From NCBI GenBank assembly GCA_000004985.1, contig GG738845.1: a DNA stretch of 64,000 bases. One strand, given 5' to 3'. Numbering within the stretch: the stretch's first letter is position 1; every line of letters begins with the position of its first letter. Positions 26,715 through 37,295 of this stretch are shown here, piece after piece. The translations under genes and the position numbers were made by a program. This DNA is from Naegleria gruberi. Taxonomy: Eukaryota. The notes beneath the pieces were generated by a model. It had not been told where the DNA came from. It worked only from the letters and a program-made list of their open reading frames with translations, and did not search any database.

Positions 26715-29700
26715 TTAAACAATTTCTGGTTTATCATTGACTGTTCTGTGGTGGGTTAAGGTTTGTCCAATTCCAACTGAGCTAGAGGTACCTGCTGTAA
26801 TCGGTTGACCAATGCTTGTTTGATCCTTTTCATCTGTGAAACTAGTACCCATATTTGTTTGATTTTTAAAGTTTCTGCCACTCTTATTTCCACCCTTTGA
26901 TTTGAACAATTTTCTTACAATTAAACAACAGCAACAAATAAAGCAAATCACACCGACAATAATAGCGTCATAAACATAACGATTATATCGAACATTATTG
27001 TAGTGCTCCATCAATTCATCAATATAGAGGAATGGATTTTCTTCACTGTCTTGTAATTCAAATTGGGATCTATTTGGGAAGTACCAATTGTAAAAGTTGT
27101 GTAACATTTCAACAACCTGTTCATTTGGTTTGGTTTGATTCATATCATCATTCAAACAAATGAATTTAGGTCTGTTTCTTCTCAATTCGTCCAATTGATC
27201 TCCAACTTTATCTTCATCATCTCTAATCATGTGGAATCCTACTTGAGATAAATCTTCCAATGTAAATGGAAAACGTTGTTCGCTCTTGTGTGCCTTTGTT
27301 TTAACAATATCGCTTAGGCCACTATTAACAAAATCTTCAAGAATTGGTTTAGTTCTGAATGCAGAGTCATCCATTGCTTGATATCGTGACAATACAAGCC
27401 TTGTATAATTGAGATGGCCATACAGGATATTTCTTACTGTTTGATGATACTCCTTAAATTCAGAAAAATCTTCAAAATAGGACCAAGATTTCCACTTCTT
27501 GTTACTCTTTGTACTGGCCCAGAAATAGGAACCAAATTCATCATCTTCTGAATTTTTTGTACTGTTTGTTGTTGCAGTTGTGTTAATAGGTGATGTACTA
27601 ATTTCTGGTGTTGGAGTCTTCTTTTTGCCCTTCTTAGTTTTCTTTTTTGGTTTTTCTAATCCTCCTCTTTCCTTTTTCATTTCATCATTAATTGTATTAA
27701 TACTAGATGTAATATTGGTATGTAAATCAGTTAATTTGGAGAGAGGTATCTTGTACTTGTGATACATCAAGTTAGCTAAATTTCTAATTTCATAATTATC
27801 CAAAACATTATCATTGTTTGTATCAACATGTTCCCTCAAAAATCTAGAGACATTATAGTGAATACCTTCATGCATTAAATAGTAGAAATAGGTAAATGTA
27901 TACTGCATATCACTTGAGGATCTAAATCTATTGGATGATGTGACATTGAATTCATATTCCCATTTCTTTTGAAGTTCGAACATAATGTCCCTATCAATCA
28001 TGTGAGGCATGTGAGCTGGTACCTTACGAGAGGCCCTACCATATTCTCTATTCAACAACTTATTCACATGAATTAAACTATCTCCAAACTTATCGAGGAG
28101 TTTTCTACCGATTCTAACAGGTGTGGAGCTTTCTGTGGTGACGCTGTTACTGCTGTCATCATAGTTTTCACTCTTGATTTCTCTTTCAATTCTCTTTTTG
28201 ATATTTTCATATTTTTCTTGATTCTTTTCCTTTTCTGCTAGATTGAAACGGAGGGAATTAACAATTTCTTCAGGATGAGATTGAACAATAGGAATTCTGT
28301 TAGAGTATGATGGTCGAATATTTGATGGAGACGAGATGCCCAATAACTTTCTGTTTTTCTTTTTTAACAACTTTTTCAAATATCTCAATTCATCACTATT
28401 GAGATTATCGATATTATAATTGTCGGCTTCTTGAGTTGGAGACTTTTCTGGTGTTTTAGGAACTTGCTGCTTCTCGGTTGCAATGACTGGATTGGTTTTG
28501 ATAACATTTTCAGAGATGTCATCAATTTCTGTTGCCTTTTCTTTTTGTTTGGTTTCTGTCTTGATATCAACAACTTTTTTAGTCAAATCATCTTCAATCT
28601 TTTTAGTGACAGGTTTGATTTCAGTATCCTTTTTAGCTTGTATAGTGTCGAGTGTACTAGTTGGGGTTTCTTTGGTGACAGTTTCCAAAGTATTCTTCAT
28701 TGGTTCAGTTTTCTTTTCCTCCAATTTAACTTGAGCTTTTTTGGTGTCAATAGATGCAGGACGAACAGCTTGGTTTTCAGTAATGACTGGATTGGTTTTG
28801 ATAACATTTTCAGAAATATCGTCAATTTCTGTTGCCTTGGTTTCTAACTTGGATCCAGATTGTTTCTTGGTATTTGTAACTGACTTGTCATTTTCTTGAG
28901 TATCAGAATTGATATTGTTCCAACTATTAAACCAATCAGTTTCAGGAGTTGTCTTGGTGGCTTTTTCTGCAGGTTTGGTGCTATTGTTCTTTCCAACAAT
29001 AGCATTAAGCTGAGTTTTAGAAAAGTAGGTAGAAACCACCAATGCCTTATTGTAGTTCTTGTCAGCTGCTAACTCTGATTCTTGTGATTCATGAATACCA
29101 AAAATGCTTGTTTCATTTGATAAGTTAAATTTTTTGGCAATGTAATTGAATGTATGATTTGAAACAACCTTTACGATGAAAGATTTTGTAATTGTCAATT
29201 TAGTGCCCAATTGTTCAAAAGTAGTGGAGTGAGTGTTTTGGAATGTATCAGTTTTGGAGGTATCATTAAGAACTCTCTCAGCTTCCAAAGAAACCGGGAC
29301 ATGTTCTTCATAGAAATTGGTATTGTTACTGTACTTGGTAACATTGGACTTGAGAGATTGATAATTAAAAGTGAATATGAGGAGCTTTTCCTTTTGTGAA
29401 ATTGTTGAACTTCTAACTAGCTTTTCATTTTCGTGATTGCCATTAGTAATTTGAGCATCTTTGAATATCTTACTCAAATCCAAGTAAATGGAAGGTTCTA
29501 TATTACGGACATAGATAACTGAAATGCTATTTTCCAATTGTACATGCTCCAATTCTGTCTTTAATTCCTTAAACTCGCAATCTCCAGCATCATAACCACA
29601 TTCTTTAACGTTACATGGTCTATCACAAAAACGATCACCAATCCATGAATCAGAACAAGAGGCTGAGCAATAATTCTTAGTATTAGTGGATGACCAAAAA

Positions 29701-31285
29701 CTATTAGAATTACTACCATAATTATAGTTACCACCATAGTTGCCATAACTTGATGAAGAGCTTGAAGATCCGTAAGAGAATCTCACATTTGGACCAACGC
29801 AATCACCACCATCAAAATCACATTGAGTAACATTGCAAGAAACGTCACAATAACCATCACCTAACCAAGATTCTTGGCATCCTTCATGGCATGGAGGAAC
29901 TTCCCAACTGAGGAATACTTTTTGTCCAGTTGAGTGACTATAAAAATCCTCTGGATACACATCGTTACCAAACATGACATCATCATTCAAGTAAATAAAC
30001 TTTTTAGAAAGGCCAGGAATTCTATGAATTTGAGATTCAATAGAAGGTGAGCTGAAAACTGGTAAATGGATTGGATTTCTGTAAACATCGGCATGTTTAA
30101 CAATTTTAACCTTTGGATTCTTTACGTTTAACCAGCTTGGCACTTGACCACTTGTCACAATATAAACATTTCTGACCCATGGAGCAAATCGTTCCAAACT
30201 ACGTAAACTGTATCTCAACTCATCATTATCTCTAAATCTGTTACTACTATTGGTATCATCAGTTTTGGTAGCATTCTTAGTTGTTGTACCATTGTTGATA
30301 ATTTCTGAGTCATTTTTAACTTTAGGAGTATTTTCCTTCTTTGATTTCTTAGTGGTCTTTTTTGTCAAAGCCTTGTTAGTTTTTGCTTTCTTTCCAGTGG
30401 CACCCTTTTTTTCAACCTTAGTATGTTGTTGTTTGGTAACTGGTGGTTTGGTTGTCTTTTTTGATGAATTGGTTTTCTTTGTAACAGGTGCTTTAGTCTT
30501 TTTGGTTACTTTGGCATTCTTATTGGTTTGAGGAATTGATTTCTTATTAGTTTCTTGTTTCTTCTTGCTTGTGGATTTCACAGAGAGTAATCTTCTTCTC
30601 TTCTTTGTTTTGTTTTCTTGTGTTTTCACATGTGCATTTCCTACTCCTTTCAAATGGTAATTATTGGTTGTTTTCTGATTGGATTTGCTAGAATCAGTAG
30701 TACTAGTAGTAGTAGTATTGGAAGACGTCTTGGTAGCAGCACTTTCAATTGTTTTAGTATTGTCAACATTAGATTTTTCTTCCTTCTCCTTTTCCAAAGC
30801 ATTAAATCGTTTCACTAAATTCTTGTGTATTGGATCGGAACCATTGACCCAAGTATAAACAATATCCATAGGTTCATAACACAATTTAGAAACTGAATTA
30901 ATTTTCATAATATTATCTCTATACATCCTATTACAATAATTTCCCAATTGTGATGCTTCATCATCCTATATTAAATATTTAAATAAATAATTTAAAAATT
31001 GAAATGTTAAAATTATTGAGAATAAATTCATTCGCATTATTATAAACTTACCACAAGGGTAGTCTTATCAGTGATGGAAATATCCAAAATAGATTGTAAC
31101 AAGTGCAATGCCGTATTTAAAGTAATAAATGTAATAATAATCAACAATATAGCACCCCATTTAGATGTTGCAAAGGAATAGAATGAACGTTGAATAGACT
31201 TTGAAAATTGATCATTAAAACAGGAACAACATTTCTTTCCTCTCTTATGATCCAATCCGACATTAGCAGTCGATGAGGGTAACAT
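26715..31285 (-). CDS. UDP-GlcNAc:lysosomal-enzyme GlcNAc-1-phosphotransferase alpha/beta homolog (GNPTAB, Stealth family). Two exons, 31052..31285 and 26715..30965, with an 86-nt intron.
   Basis: Stealth CR1 is DIVYTWVNGSDP. CR2 and CR3 are ELRYSLRSLERFAPWVRNVYIVTSGQVPSWLN..FIYLNDDVMFG. There are two Notch/LNR repeats, CHEGCQESWLGDGYCDVSCNVTQCDFDGGDC and CSASCSDSWIGDRFCDRPCNVKECGYDAGDC. CR4 is VPAHMPHMIDRDIMFELQKKW, and a C-terminal TM segment is present. The first exon encodes the N-terminal signal-anchor WGAILLIIITFITL and ends at a GTAAGT donor. Splice frames match ORFs 31040..31285 and 26715..30947. Confidence 0.85.
28481..28845 (-). repeat. Internal direct duplication inside GNPTAB, two ~70-nt copies about 290 nt apart
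   Basis: The segment aatgactggattggttttgataacattttcag(a/g)(g/a)at(g/a)tc(a/g)tcaatttctgttgcctt occurs at about 28481-28552 and again at about 28771-28845. Both copies encode ..KATEIDDISENVIKTNPVI... Confidence 0.75.
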
Positions 31286-31645: not shown

Positions 31646-33240
31646 ATGGGTCTTCCCAGAAGTACAGTCACATCAGTGTTGAGTTTCATTCTCGGAACGA
31701 ATGATGCCTCCATGAATATGATTGCATCAAAGAAGCAACCACAATTGGAAGGTGGTGGTGATGGTGCAGGAGGAGCCACTATGGAAACTGTTATTTATAT
31801 TGATGGAAATTCATTAATTTATCACAAATTGCAAGATGTTATTCCTGTAGATGCTACTGCTTCAACATTGTTTGCTGAGAAGAGTGTTTTGAAAATTGTG
31901 GAGCAAGTTAAGGATTCTGTAATTGGTCAATTGAATCATATTTATTTGGAGAATAGACCATTTTCAAAGATTGTACTAGTTTTTGATGGTCCTTGCCCAT
32001 TGTAAGTATAGTTTCCTTGCTATCATAATTATGAATTTGGAAAAGTGCTAAAAATCAAGAACAAAGAAAACGTAGATTTGCCAATGTTTCCAGTTTGATG
32101 GCAAGTCCAGGAACTTTTTTCATGTTTAAAATTTGCCAGGAGATTTATAAATGGGCAGATGATGTGTTCTATTCACATGCCACAAAGGGAGTAGATATTA
32201 AGGTGGAATTTTCTGATTGTTTCGTACCTGGAGAGGGTGAAATTAAAATTTTAGAGGCTATAAGAAATAATCCAAATTGTAGACATGTTGTCTATACTAA
32301 GGATAGTGATTTTGTATTGCTCTTATTGACATCATGTGAGGAGAATATCATTCTTGTAAATGATTATCAGAAAATAGAAAAGATTATTCTGGTAAAGAGA
32401 GTTAGAGATCAGTTTGGATTATTTGATAATCAACAATATAAGGAAAAATTGAATAGCATACTGTTGGATATGGTATTTCTATCAATAAGTTTTGGAAATG
32501 ATTACTTGAAACCAATGTCACACGAACAAAAATTGTTAAACCTATTATTGAGATACAAGAAAAAGAAGCAAAAATATCCAGAAAAGTCTCTCGTTCATAT
32601 TGAGAAGAATACAATTGGACTAGATTTGGAGTTTTTCACCAAGATTTTAATTAAATCGAAGGATGTACAACCCTCCATGAAACGATCAGAGGAAGAAACT
32701 CTTTTAACGCTTAATTATTTGAAGAGTTTGTTGTGGTGTATTGGCACTTATGAGAGTGGAGTCTGTAGAAATTACTCACAATTCTCACATTGCACACCAC
32801 CAGTACTTTTGTCTCAAATGATTCAAGATATGAGAATTTTAGCGAAAAGGGATAAGATATTAATGTTGCCAACAATTGGTGATTCAAGCTTGTTACCAGT
32901 TACATTTTTAATGTCCATAATGCCTTTCACTGTATTTAGACAGGCGATACCAAAGAATATCATTTCATTAATTGAGTCGGATAGGTCTCTAATTGTAGAG
33001 TATCAGAATCACTCTTTAAAGCCATCAAGTTTCTTCCAATTGAAAACAATTGAACAAAAGCTACAGTCCTCCATCTCCAAGGAGAAAACAATCCAAGAGG
33101 ATGACCAGATTTGGTGTGAAAAATTACTCTATCCACCCAATACAGTGTTCAAAGTTTCGAAAAATAGAATTGAGGATATCTATCTCAGAACCAAAAAAAT
33201 AGCTAAAATCCTTAAAAAGAGCAAGTCAAATAGTAAATAA
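31646..33240 (+). CDS. XRN-family 5'-3' exoribonuclease-like protein containing the catalytic core only (~510 aa). Two exons with a short intron near 32002..32046.
   Basis: Exon 1 starts MGLPRS and contains VIYIDGNSLIYH and LVFDGPCP. A GTAAGT donor follows CCATT. Exon 2 continues ..AKNQEQRKRRFANVSS, matching the XRN AKMNQQRSRRF motif. Later motifs are VPGEGEIKILE (GEGEHKI), TKDSDFVLLLL (DxD), DMVFLSISFGNDYL and YLKSLLWCIGTYESGV, a CR2-like segment. The exact acceptor position is uncertain. Confidence 0.65.
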
Positions 33241-33393: not shown

Positions 33394-33993
33394 CTAGTCA
33401 TCCCACGACGACTGTTGTTTTGGAACATTCTCAAAATCTACTTCCTTATCATACTCATATCCCTCATCACCAGGTCTGATAACGTTGAATTTCTTGTCCA
33501 TCTCTGCCTTTACTCTCCTTAGGGTGACATCATCTAGCTTGTTCAAGTCTTTCTGTTGTGTTTCACTGTCTTCCTCATCCTCGTCAAAGTTATCGTCATC
33601 ACCTTGGTGATGGTACTTAGAGGTTGTATTATTGGTATTTGGGGAAGGTTTACTTTGGTTTTGTATAGATTGAGGCCTATTATCTGGAGGTAAAAATGAT
33701 TTTGTAGTAAAATCGACCAGTTTTCTGATCATTTTTGTAGTTTGATTTTCTGGAATGTGGGAGGCTAAATTCTTATGGTGCTTCATCAGGACATTAGACT
33801 TGATGTGTTCAACCAATTCATCTTCCTCTAATTCCGGATAGTTTTGTACAATGTAGTCTTCCAAGTAAATTTTTCGATGTCTGAGTTCCTTCTTTCCTTT
33901 CTTTGAAATTGTTGTATATTCAATTACGAGAGCACATAATTTCAATCTAATTCCAATTCTTAAAACATTTACATCATCGTTATTTGAGGGCAT
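33394..33993 (-). CDS. CEP19-like centrosomal/ciliary protein
   Basis: The 199-aa ORF contains DLNKLDDVTLRRVKAEMDKKFNVIRPGDEGYEYDKEVDFENVPKQQSSWDD. This closely resembles human CEP19 [42 protein letters not shown]..SCGWD, and the N-terminal IRL..LVIEY segment matches as well. Confidence 0.65.
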   Translation of the reverse strand: MPSNNDDVNVLRIGIRLKLCALVIEYTTISKKGKKELRHRKIYLEDYIVQNYPELEEDELVEHIKSNVLMKHHKNLASHIPENQTTKMIRKLVDFTTKSFLPPDNRPQSIQNQSKPSPNTNNTTSKYHHQGDDDNFDEDEEDSETQQKDLNKLDDVTLRRVKAEMDKKFNVIRPGDEGYEYDKEVDFENVPKQQSSWDD

Positions 33994-34171: not shown

Positions 34172-34867
34172 TTATTCTCTCTCTGTATTATTCAATATGT
34201 ATTTTAAGGAGAGAGGATAGAAATTCTCAAAGAAATCATATTTTCTATAATCTAGATAATTGTGGGGCCACTTATCAATTCCAATCTTTTCCTTGATCTG
34301 ATAAAATTTTCTTTTAAGAGTTGATAAACTACATCCAAGAACATTGCATGCTTGCTGTTGAGTAAGATGCAAGAGACGTATCATCTCATCATCTGTAATA
34401 CTATCCACACTTCTTTTTCCTCTTTTTCCAATCATGGATGCATCGACTCGAATTATGGAAACATGTTGATCCTTTGAATAATTAAAATATGAATTCTTAT
34501 GAACATCTACTGGGCTTAACATTTGATTTTCCATGAATGTATAAACAACTTGTTCAAAGGGTTTTTCGCTAGTATTCGAACTATTGGAATCTCTATTCTT
34601 CATTTCGTACTTTCTTTTGATTTTTTTAGTTTTTTTCACTCCACCAATCCTGAATTTCGACATGTATTCGAATTGTGAGTTGGATGTTAAGCATGTGTCA
34701 TCAACATCCTCATGCACATGCATGCCATCCGTTGTCACATTAGCAGATGTGTTGTACGCAGATTCTGGTGATGGTAATCTCATACTATTGTTGTGTTGGT
34801 GTTGTTGTTGATTTCCCCTATTAATGTTTAAATAGATGTTATGGTTTGATGTTGTTTGATGCATCAA
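34172..34867 (-). CDS. RWP-RK domain transcription factor
   Basis: The C-terminal ITDDEMIRLLHLTQQQACNVLGCSLSTLKRKFYQIKEKIGIDKWPH matches the RWP-RK domain, with a KWP variant of the RWP triplet. The N-terminus is Q/N-rich. Confidence 0.55.
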   Translation of the reverse strand: MMHQTTSNHNIYLNINRGNQQQHQHNNSMRLPSPESAYNTSANVTTDGMHVHEDVDDTCLTSNSQFEYMSKFRIGGVKKTKKIKRKYEMKNRDSNSSNTSEKPFEQVVYTFMENQMLSPVDVHKNSYFNYSKDQHVSIIRVDASMIGKRGKRSVDSITDDEMIRLLHLTQQQACNVLGCSLSTLKRKFYQIKEKIGIDKWPHNYLDYRKYDFFENFYPLSLKYILNNTERE

Positions 34868-35894: not shown

Positions 35895-37295
35895 ATGAGC
35901 TCAAACCGAAGACCCAACAATAATAACACAGCACCTCCCCAACCCACAACAGCCGCTGCTAATCCAGCTGATGCTAAGAATTATGAAGAGTTGAAGGCGG
36001 AATTGGAGGAGACAAAGAGAAATAGAAATTACTACCAATTGGAAAGGGATAGAATAAATTCCTTCTGGGATATTACAAAGAAGGAAGTGGAAAATCTCAA
36101 GGGCGAGGTAAGGAACATGCAGAGGGAGATGGAAGAAAATGAAGAAAGACATCAGGTAGAATTAAAAGTGTACAAACAAAAAGTTAGACATCTTCTCTAT
36201 GAACAAAAGATCACCATTGATAGATTAAAAATTGAAAGTGAGAATGCTTTAAAGATCCAAGCTGATGAATTTAGGCAAAAATTAGCTCAATTGAAATCGG
36301 ATAAGAGAAAATTAAAAAGAGAACTCCACTCTATGGAAATAGCTTACCAAGAAGAAATCAAGGGGCTTAAAACGAATCAAGACAAAAACTTGACAAAACA
36401 AACTGAGACATTTGCAAGAAAACTTAAAGAGACCCAACTGAAATATGAAATGAAAATGAAAAAATTAAGAGAAGATTTAGAATTGAGAGGGAGAAAAGAA
36501 ACTGAAGAAATTGAAGAAAGAAAAAATACTCACATCAAACAATTAATGGAAAAACACAAACTTGCCTTTCAACAAATGAAGGATTACTATATAACTATTA
36601 CTAGAAATAACTTGGAATTAATCAAAACTCTGAAAGATGAAGCTGCACTGATGAAACAGGAAGAAGCAGACAATGAAAAACTCATGTTGGAAATTGCTCA
36701 AGACAATAAGAGATTGAGTGAACCTCTTGTTAAGGCTCTGGCAGAAGTTAAAAAGCTCAGAAATGAATTGGCCAACTACCAAAAGGACAAGCTATCTCTC
36801 AAAAATGCCAAGAGCAGGCTGGTCATGATGGAAGATCAATTGAAGAAATTGAAATGGGAACATGAGATTTTAGAACAAAGCCATAAGCAAGTGCACAGAG
36901 AACGTGACGATCTTTACGATAAGTTTGAAAAAACTATTCATGAAGTTCAACAAAAAACACTGTTCAAGAATCAAGTTCTTGAAACAAAGGTTTATGCACT
37001 TCAAGAAACTTTGGAAAAGAAGGATGCCCAAATTCATGAAATACTCAAAGCTTGTAACATAGATGAACACACAGCCGAAGAAATCTCTGAAGGTCTTGAT
37101 AATGTCATTGAAGAAAAGAACAACACGATACGAGAACTCAAATTTGAAATTGAAAAGATGAAGAAGAGTTATAATGATTTGATACGAGTAATTAATGCCA
37201 AGATGCAACAGTATGGAATTGAGGATGAGTTAGGTATTGAACCAATCGCTAACGTTGTTGATGAAGGTGTCCCAGGTAGAGTATGGGTAAAATAA
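35895..37295 (+). CDS. GAS8/DRC4, nexin-dynein regulatory complex subunit 4 (axonemal)
   Basis: Single 466-aa coiled-coil ORF. It contains RNYYQLERDRINSFWDITKK...EERHQVELKVYKQKVRHLLYE, close to the human GAS8 segment [41 protein letters not shown]. Collinear similarity continues through the C-terminus: KWEHEILEQ.., ELYDKF..IHEVQQKT.FKN.VLE.K. Confidence 0.85.
   Translation: MSSNRRPNNNNTAPPQPTTAAANPADAKNYEELKAELEETKRNRNYYQLERDRINSFWDITKKEVENLKGEVRNMQREMEENEERHQVELKVYKQKVRHLLYEQKITIDRLKIESENALKIQADEFRQKLAQLKSDKRKLKRELHSMEIAYQEEIKGLKTNQDKNLTKQTETFARKLKETQLKYEMKMKKLREDLELRGRKETEEIEERKNTHIKQLMEKHKLAFQQMKDYYITITRNNLELIKTLKDEAALMKQEEADNEKLMLEIAQDNKRLSEPLVKALAEVKKLRNELANYQKDKLSLKNAKSRLVMMEDQLKKLKWEHEILEQSHKQVHRERDDLYDKFEKTIHEVQQKTLFKNQVLETKVYALQETLEKKDAQIHEILKACNIDEHTAEEISEGLDNVIEEKNNTIRELKFEIEKMKKSYNDLIRVINAKMQQYGIEDELGIEPIANVVDEGVPGRVWVK

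Follow-up and report, generated by a model that had tools for sequence, protein, structure and literature searches.

Can a 5'->3' exoribonuclease of the XRN family be reduced to its catalytic core, and what would such a protein do beside the canonical XRNs of the same organism? This question is raised by a gene at positions 31646-33240 of a 64,000-nucleotide stretch of Naegleria gruberi DNA (contig GG738845.1, assembly GCA_000004985.1; the whole stretch is hereafter called the window). An earlier reading of the bare sequence, the original prediction, had described the gene as an XRN of ~510 amino acids, limited to the catalytic core. Our analysis shows that the gene is a further paralogue, which N. 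gruberi has in addition to its canonical XRNs, that the 516-residue product ends where the products of its orthologues end, and that it is a new member of a widespread set of short XRN-like proteins without an assigned function. We put at roughly three in four the probability that the product, as predicted from its sequence and a modelled fold, is an active, stand-alone 5'->3' exoribonuclease that depends on a 5'-monophosphate (5'-P) and belongs to this non-canonical short group.

The gene is recorded as XP_002683212.1 (EFC50468.1, NAEGRDRAFT_61457, UniProt D2UYF9), and the protein at the locus is 100% identical to the entry 'predicted protein [Naegleria gruberi]'. Start and stop, an ATG at 31646 and a TAA at 33238-33240 on the + strand, were both confirmed, and two exons form a coding sequence of 1551 nucleotides with 516 codons; the predicted length thus stood as a core-only size and needed correction as an exact figure. 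The gene is laid out as follows:

31646..32001, + strand: exon 1, residues 1-118 and two bases of codon 119
within exon 1, + strand: XRN N-terminal helix MGLPRSTVTSVLSFILG, a low-complexity loop, D53 (31802-31804), Y59, and D114 (31985-31987), from the open reading frame, the sequence, and the orthologue alignment
32002..32045, + strand: intron of 44 nucleotides, GTAAGT...AAAG, with an in-frame TAA at 32003-32005
32046..33240, + strand: exon 2, last base of codon 119, residues 120-516, and TAA

Read without splicing, a 119-codon open reading frame from the ATG at 31646 ends at 32003-32005, and a second one, which lies in another frame, starts at 32095 and ends with the stop codon at 33238-33240. 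Excision of 44 nucleotides, from the GTAAGT at 32002 to the AG at 32044-32045, joins both frames and restores the conserved DGPCPFAKNQEQRKRRF motif, the junction reading FDGPCP followed by FAKNQEQRKRRF. The gene model can be considered secure, since the public N. gruberi model (P0001) uses the same junction, FDGPCP and FAKNQEQRKRRF adjoin without a break in the proteins of N. lovaniensis, N. fowleri, and Willaertia, and an intron, also GTAAGT...AG, lies at the identical codon position in N. lovaniensis (58 nucleotides; L004 3339..3396) and N. fowleri (72 nucleotides; L003 2853..2924). Excising that one intron gives exactly the annotated proteins of these two species, of 522 and 518 amino acids, respectively. 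Furthermore, the N-terminus encoded by exon 1 can be aligned with the N. lovaniensis and Willaertia orthologues, and a tblastn search with the N. lovaniensis orthologue as query covered 32047..33201 at 55% identity. Judged from its sequence, the locus is an intact nuclear gene of the expressed type, with two exons and one conserved intron. The position and the GTAAGT 5' end of this intron are constant in the three Naegleria species and its length is variable (44, 58, and 72 nucleotides), the 44 nucleotides of N. gruberi being very short for a spliceosomal intron.

The public model XP_002683212.1 (436 amino acids) also excises a 53-nucleotide GT..AG 'intron' at 32932..32984 (+), which causes a frameshift and an early end (...MPFTV followed by SNCRVSESLFKAIKFLPIENN and a stop). 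Because the unspliced reading of this segment (FRQAIPKNIISLIESDRSLIVEYQNH...) is kept in every orthologue, and the orthologue genes have one intron only, the 436-residue model is probably wrong, and the protein most likely has 516 amino acids.

One could still ask whether the short length is an artefact, be it a truncated model, a pseudogene, or missing exons for the XRN C-terminal domains, as both the reading frame interrupted at 32003 and the inconsistent public model, with its 436 residues and different C-terminus, might suggest. However, the orthologues from N. lovaniensis (522 amino acids), N. fowleri (518 amino acids), and Willaertia magna (540 amino acids) align colinearly with the 516-residue protein all the way from the initial MG(L/V) to the final residues, the relatives' genes consist of one intron followed by a stop, and the model of an orthologue (described below) forms one compact, high-confidence unit up to the C-terminus. 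The gap noted after the gene measures 153 nucleotides, beyond which lies a complete, convergent CEP19-like gene (33394..33993, -; Pfam CEP19 E=1.2e-42, profile positions 2-151 of 151). The shared end point, the single-intron orthologue genes, and this neighbor speak against downstream exons encoding the usual XRN C-terminal domains, and tblastn searches with XRN1-like, XRN2-like, and two canonical N. gruberi XRN queries found no further XRN in the 64-kb window, hence no canonical full-length XRN at the locus. We regard an artefact of this kind as extremely improbable.

About 420 of the ~520 residues correspond to the XRN catalytic domain, which leaves no room for accessory domains. On sequence grounds, the protein is therefore catalytic core only, consisting of a PIN/FEN-like core (conserved region 1, CR1) and a divergent second conserved region (CR2); together with a match to the XRN N-terminal domain and an end shared with the orthologues, this bears out the central claim of the original prediction. 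Members of the XRN1 subfamily carry domains D1-D4 after the catalytic domain and exceed ~1100 amino acids, whereas this protein ends at residue 516 with a convergent gene 153 nucleotides on. Members of the XRN2/Rat1 subfamily have a long tower, a segment beyond CR2 for the binding of Rai1 or another partner, and ~900-1000 amino acids, compared to a 9-residue tower linker and 516 amino acids here.

Membership in the XRN family, already in the public record through precomputed Pfam, is clear from the match to XRN_N (PF03159; 89.8 bits vs. a cut-off of 22.9, E=2.5e-25, best stretch residues 134-224) and from sequence matches to the Xrn1 and Xrn2/Rat1 chains in the PDB (E down to 2.5e-11). Every motif quoted in the original prediction, i.e., IDGN, FDGPCP, PGEGEIKI, KDSDF, GNDY, the pocket helix, and a CR2-like segment, was found and could be aligned to canonical XRNs. 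The seven acidic residues D53 (IDGN), D114 (FDGPCP), E182 and E184 (PGEGEIKI), D205 and D207 (KDSDF), and D271 (GNDY) are equivalent to Xrn1 D35, D86, E176, E178, D206, D208, and D291/292, and the 5'-phosphate pocket residues K121, Q125, R128, and R129 in AKNQEQRKRRF to Xrn1 K93, Q97, R100, and R101. These catalytic and pocket residues align one-to-one with those of canonical XRNs (74-sequence alignment), and across 18 short XRN-like proteins from diverse sources the seven acidic residues, K121, Q125, and R129 show no variation and R128 hardly any. Beyond exon 1, the functional elements map to the following positions:

32050..32076, + strand: 5'-phosphate pocket helix with K121/Q125/R128/R129, from alignment with canonical XRNs
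32233..32310, + strand: metal-binding acidic cluster E182 (32233-35), E184 (32239-41), D205 (32302-04), and D207 (32308-10), invariant in family alignments
32500..32502, + strand: D271 of GNDY, the seventh acidic residue, invariant in alignments
32716..32802, + strand: CR2-like helix and loop Y343 LKSLLW349 CIGTY354 ESG357 VCRNY362 SQFSHCTPP, from alignment
32947..33237, + strand: helical C-terminal region of ~100 residues (~420-516), from orthologue alignment and model

Within the CR2-like segment (YLKSLLWCIGTYESGV...MLPTIGDSSLLP), Y343, W349, Y354, and G357 do not vary among the 18 aligned short XRN-like proteins, and the hidden Markov model (HMM) of canonical XRNs aligns N. gruberi residues 323-438 to its CR2 region (28.5 bits). 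In place of the canonical SWxWxYPxHYxP of CR2, N. gruberi has VCRNYSQFSH, and GxCx[DN]Y at this place is a signature of the short group. In K. lactis numbering, SWSW lies at ~534-537, and Tyr362 would be the presumed equivalent of Drosophila Xrn1 Trp540.

The predicted fold is consistent with this assignment. An AlphaFold2 model was built for the N. lovaniensis orthologue, 55% identical to the N. gruberi protein, from a 60-sequence alignment; it has a mean predicted local distance difference test score (pLDDT) of 91.4 and a predicted template modeling score (pTM) of 0.91, with pLDDT <50 only in loop 30-34. When this model was compared with the PDB using Foldseek, the human XRN1 catalytic domain came out on top (E=1.4e-15, TMq 0.66), with structures of Xrn2/Rat1 next. 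Of the tower/arch, apparently just one short helix is left (model helices 113-125 and 127-131): the linker from the RR of the pocket helix to SPGT has 9 residues in all four heterolobosean proteins, compared to a median of 17 for viral, 27 for algal, and 43 for canonical XRNs (range of the latter 16-74), and is the shortest that we saw. The C-terminal ~100 residues are conserved among heteroloboseans (IWxEKLL, YLR) and are modeled with a pLDDT mostly of 82-96, with 51 only at the last residues. The short XRNs of giant viruses also have a C-terminus colinear with this region, as the HMM of the viral group spans N. gruberi residues 85-510 in a single domain. A lysine-rich LLRYKKKKxK (residues 286-295), invariant among heterolobosean orthologues, might serve in nuclear localisation or as a patch that binds RNA.

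Because the catalytic and pocket residues and the fold are conserved, we infer an RNA exonuclease. In the XRN enzymes studied biochemically, seven acidic residues support two-metal hydrolysis with 5'->3' release of mononucleotides (Jinek et al. 2011, Chang et al. 2011 per PMC5499597), and the K/Q/R/R pocket selects 5'-monophosphate ends and sterically shuts out caps and triphosphates (PMC5499597). By the same scheme, D53, D114, E182, E184, D205, D207, and D271 would hold two Mg2+ for hydrolysis, K121, Q125, R128, and R129 would grip the 5'-monophosphate of single-stranded RNA, and mononucleotides would be released in the 5'->3' direction. More speculatively, Tyr59 (His in the orthologues) and Tyr362 are candidate base-stacking residues. 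A role as a specialised 5'-monophosphate RNA exonuclease, as originally suggested, is plausible given the conserved pocket, and by analogy with kinetoplastid XRNB one may speculate about a redundant or specialised decay of 5'-monophosphate RNA in the cytosol; our confidence in any particular cellular role is much lower than in the enzymatic activity. A role in mitochondrial tRNA 5'-editing was considered and dropped, as the N-terminus is the conserved XRN helix and not a presequence, and nothing else supported it. Our literature search found no mention of the gene's accession numbers.

Alternatively, the protein might act on DNA, either as a 5'->3' exodeoxyribonuclease or as a flap endonuclease of the FEN1/Exo1 kind, or might be an inactive RNA-binding pseudoenzyme. 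The truncated tower/arch would be compatible with either, a yeast Xrn1 homologue has been reported to cleave single-stranded DNA (PMC5499597, Table 2), and viral relatives are annotated merely as '5'-3' exonuclease'. Set against a DNA nuclease are the intact XRN-specific K/Q/R/R pocket for the 5'-phosphate, the far closer match to XRN than to other nucleases that share the FEN-type fold, and the fact that the XRN_N members assayed to date were only 5'->3' exonucleases on 5'-P RNA (PMC5499597); against a pseudoenzyme, the seven acidic residues are kept in every orthologue. Both variants thus appear unlikely compared to an RNA exonuclease.

Two canonical XRNs of N. gruberi, XP_002671758 and XP_002679108, are encoded elsewhere in the genome and have been listed as Xrn1 homologues (PMC5862402). 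Both fell on the canonical side of a neighbor-joining tree (415 columns, 100 bootstraps), which combined them with 63 database sequences and trimmed Trypanosoma brucei XRNA-D (PMC5862402 supplement). In this tree, heterolobosean proteins (bootstrap 90%), kinetoplastid XRNB (92%), giant-virus proteins (86%), and green-algal proteins (87%) each formed a clade, and these four clades, along with chytrid, Cavostelium, Balamuthia, and Amoebophrya proteins and a metagenomic protein (P0008), were separated at 91% from XRN1/XRNA, XRN2/XRND, XRNC, and a set of mid-size proteins. We refer to this assemblage as the short XRN-like group, an informal grouping defined in this analysis. The original prediction had proposed to place the protein among XRN1, XRN2, and the XRNA-D enzymes, and the outcome is that it groups with XRNB and the short proteins, and not with XRN1/XRNA, XRN2/XRND, or XRNC. 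In the short group, the canonical GEGEHK is replaced by GEGE[ILVM]K, GNDF by GNDY, and SWxWxYPxHY by GxCx[DN]Y, three sequence signatures that its members share. Among HMMs built for each group without heterolobosean sequences, the Naegleria protein was matched at 183.7 bits by the eukaryotic short group (one domain), 181.4 bits by the mid-size group (two domains), 167.7 bits by the viral short group (one domain, residues 85-510), and 106.5 bits by the canonical group (four fragments).

Several observations weigh against an active enzyme of the short group. The tree is a distance tree in which all branches are long, so that long-branch attraction among divergent sequences is possible, and the HMM of the mid-size XRN-like group nearly equals that of the eukaryotic short group (181 vs. 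184 bits). At the equivalent of Xrn1 His41, where the 5' base is stacked, N. gruberi has Tyr59 instead of the His found in N. lovaniensis, N. fowleri, and Willaertia; it is likewise an aromatic, putatively base-stacking residue. Pfam XRN_M (PF17846, CR2) was undetected in the N. gruberi protein at E<=1, and only the orthologues carry it, listed in precomputed Pfam and marked as faint on their contigs. The fold was modeled on an orthologue rather than on the window's own protein. Finally, hardly anything is left of the tower/arch, which helps substrate orientation in FEN/XRN enzymes (PMC5499597). The protein may therefore differ from Xrn1 in its processivity or its choice of substrate, a reduced processivity or an altered choice being a speculative consequence.

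A short XRN turned out not to be the rarity that the original prediction had supposed, as such proteins are widespread in protists, algae, a chytrid, and giant viruses; as an observation on the genome, the core-only paralogue is thus correct and unsurprising. A profile built from the database orthologues and searched against 1.84 billion representative proteins (E<=0.001) retrieved 1332 relatives. Among the 148 best non-Naegleria representatives, 100 start with the XRN 'MG', and 70 of these 100 are no longer than 650 amino acids (median 501). Another word-indexed search for homologues, with an 18-sequence profile, yielded only 8 proteins and little that was new. The Naegleria protein aligns with short proteins over residues ~50-440 and with canonical XRNs mainly over 50-273. 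Beyond the Willaertia magna orthologue (540 amino acids), short or XRN-like proteins occur in Cavostelium apophysatum (511 amino acids), the chytrid Batrachochytrium dendrobatidis (430 amino acids), the green algae Caulerpa, Gonium, Symbiochloris, and Trebouxia (589-737 amino acids), Balamuthia (671 amino acids), and Amoebophrya (562 and 985 amino acids). Trypanosomes have up to six divergent XRNs, XRNA-F, with XRNF consisting of the XRN core alone (PMC3854532; PMC10351884). A large group of ~470 amino acids, with an 'MGIxxF' start, lies on giant-virus-type contigs, one of which (21.6 kb) has a prokaryote-like gene density and also encodes kinases, ubiquitins, and a sulfhydryl oxidase resembling Mimivirus R596. 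Similarly, a structure search against viral proteins returned the 'XRN 5'-3' exonuclease' of Edafosvirus, Pithovirus metagenome-assembled genomes, CeV-01B (522 amino acids), Tetraselmis virus 1 (493 amino acids), and Mimivirus R528. XRN_N has been recorded in dsDNA viruses before, with its function there unknown (PMC5499597).

Some individual relatives showed features of their own. The closest relative outside Naegleria and Willaertia is P0008 (689 amino acids; L001 2886..4955; eukaryotic metagenome contig, JGI 3300037860), which has the same 9-residue tower linker plus a C-terminal tail of ~200 residues rich in lysine and glutamate, and whose gene adjoins genes for a pentatricopeptide repeat (PPR) protein and an alliinase-like protein. 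P0007 (1248 amino acids) carries two tandem, near-identical plant-like XRN cores, which reflect either a true tandem duplication that gene calling merged into one protein or an error of the assembly. A C-terminal CxxC...(20-40 amino acids)...H-x3-H, which resembles a zinc-binding element, is common to short XRNs of giant viruses and green algae (P0018, P0022, P0032, P0047, P0064, P0065, P0083, P0105, P0127) and absent in the heterolobosean, Cavostelium, and P0008 proteins.

Compared to canonical XRN1 and XRN2 (Rat1), the Naegleria protein shares the seven acidic residues and the K/Q/R/R pocket, the N-terminal MG(V/L)P helix, and the CR2-like YLxxLxW...Y..G. It differs in its length (516 amino acids vs. 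~950 to >1400), in the absence of Xrn1 D1-D4 and of a C-terminal extension of Rat1 length, in its tower linker (9 residues vs. a median of 43), and in having GEGEIK for GEGEHK, GNDY for GNDF, VCRNYSQFSH for SWxWxYPxHYxP, and Tyr at the His41 equivalent.

The comparison with kinetoplastids covered T. brucei XRNA-D, with XRNF and Tb927.10.5920 (PMC13248013) outside it. XRNB falls in the same 91% group and has GEGE[ILV]K, GxCxDY, and a short tower; like the Naegleria protein, it is a Discoba protein without an assigned function, being cytosolic and apparently non-essential, with no clear phenotype (PMC3854532; PMC10351884). However, the heterolobosean clade is not its specific sister in the tree, BLAST similarity between trimmed sequences is no higher to XRNB than to XRNC or XRND, and XRNB has GGD where Naegleria has GND. 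XRNF resembles the Naegleria protein in having no recognisable domain beyond the XRN core (PMC3854532), whereas XRNE, a nucleolar protein of 891 amino acids involved in rRNA processing (PMC3854532), differs from it.

Taken together, these comparisons add a third XRN-type nuclease to Naegleria, to which the pathogen N. fowleri, with its orthologue of 518 amino acids, also belongs, and indicate that a compact XRN core of ~500 residues with a nearly deleted tower is conserved across the genus and beyond. The protein would offer a convenient minimal model of the XRN catalytic domain, free of Xrn1 D1-D4 and of the Rat1 partner Rai1, and a biochemical result on one member of the short group would annotate hundreds of proteins. 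A further-reaching view is that the short group represents a third XRN lineage of ancient origin, separate from both XRN1 and XRN2 and either early-eukaryotic or spread by giant viruses, in which the Naegleria protein would be close to a minimal self-sufficient unit with a dedicated RNA substrate instead of a redundant role. The data are compatible with a third lineage, for which the evidence is the distance tree, and we consider this view possible but somewhat doubtful.

The giant-virus XRNs (Mimivirus R528, CeV-01B 'XRNA family 5'-3' exonuclease', Tetraselmis virus 1, Edafosvirus) are like the Naegleria protein in length (~440-620 amino acids), in predicted fold (Foldseek E down to 2.4e-14, TMq up to 0.67 with the orthologue model), in colinearity over N. 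gruberi residues 85-510, and in the GxCx[DN]Y signature of CR2. Given this likeness, the gene might be a recent giant-virus insertion, i.e., an endogenised viral element, rather than a cellular paralogue: many giant-virus XRNs are among its closest non-heterolobosean relatives, and the HMM of the viral group aligns over nearly the whole protein. Such an insertion is nevertheless very improbable. The spliceosomal intron of the gene is shared by three Naegleria species, Willaertia has the gene as well, the viral clade (86%) is separate from the heterolobosean one (90%), and the CxxC...H...H motif of viral and green-algal members is absent from the Naegleria and Willaertia C-termini in the 18-sequence alignment. 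G+C is uniform across the AT-rich window, at ~0.30-0.36, and the genomic context is cellular, with ordinary eukaryotic neighbors encoding CEP19, GAS8, RWP-RK, and Stealth/LNR (Lin-12/Notch repeat) proteins. An ancient exchange between viruses and eukaryotes within the short group, in contrast to a recent insertion, may have taken place. The neighbors of the cellular paralogue are the following:

26715..30947, - strand: intron-less open reading frame of 1410 amino acids with Stealth CR1-CR4 and two Notch/LNR repeats
33394..33993, - strand: CEP19-like protein (E=1.2e-42)
34172..34867, - strand: small RWP-RK-domain protein (E=2e-07)
35895..37295, + strand: GAS8/DRC4-type flagellar protein (GAS domain E=4e-72)

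In a eukaryote, these neighbor genes give no clue to function. Two cilium/basal-body genes flank the XRN-like gene in Naegleria, an amoeboflagellate, and the genes downstream of the orthologue in N. fowleri and N. lovaniensis appeared different. The open reading frame at 26715..30947 contains long low-complexity inserts rich in K, T, and S; its combination of Stealth and LNR domains is that of N-acetylglucosamine (GlcNAc)-1-phosphotransferase, which tags lysosomal enzymes with mannose-6-phosphate.

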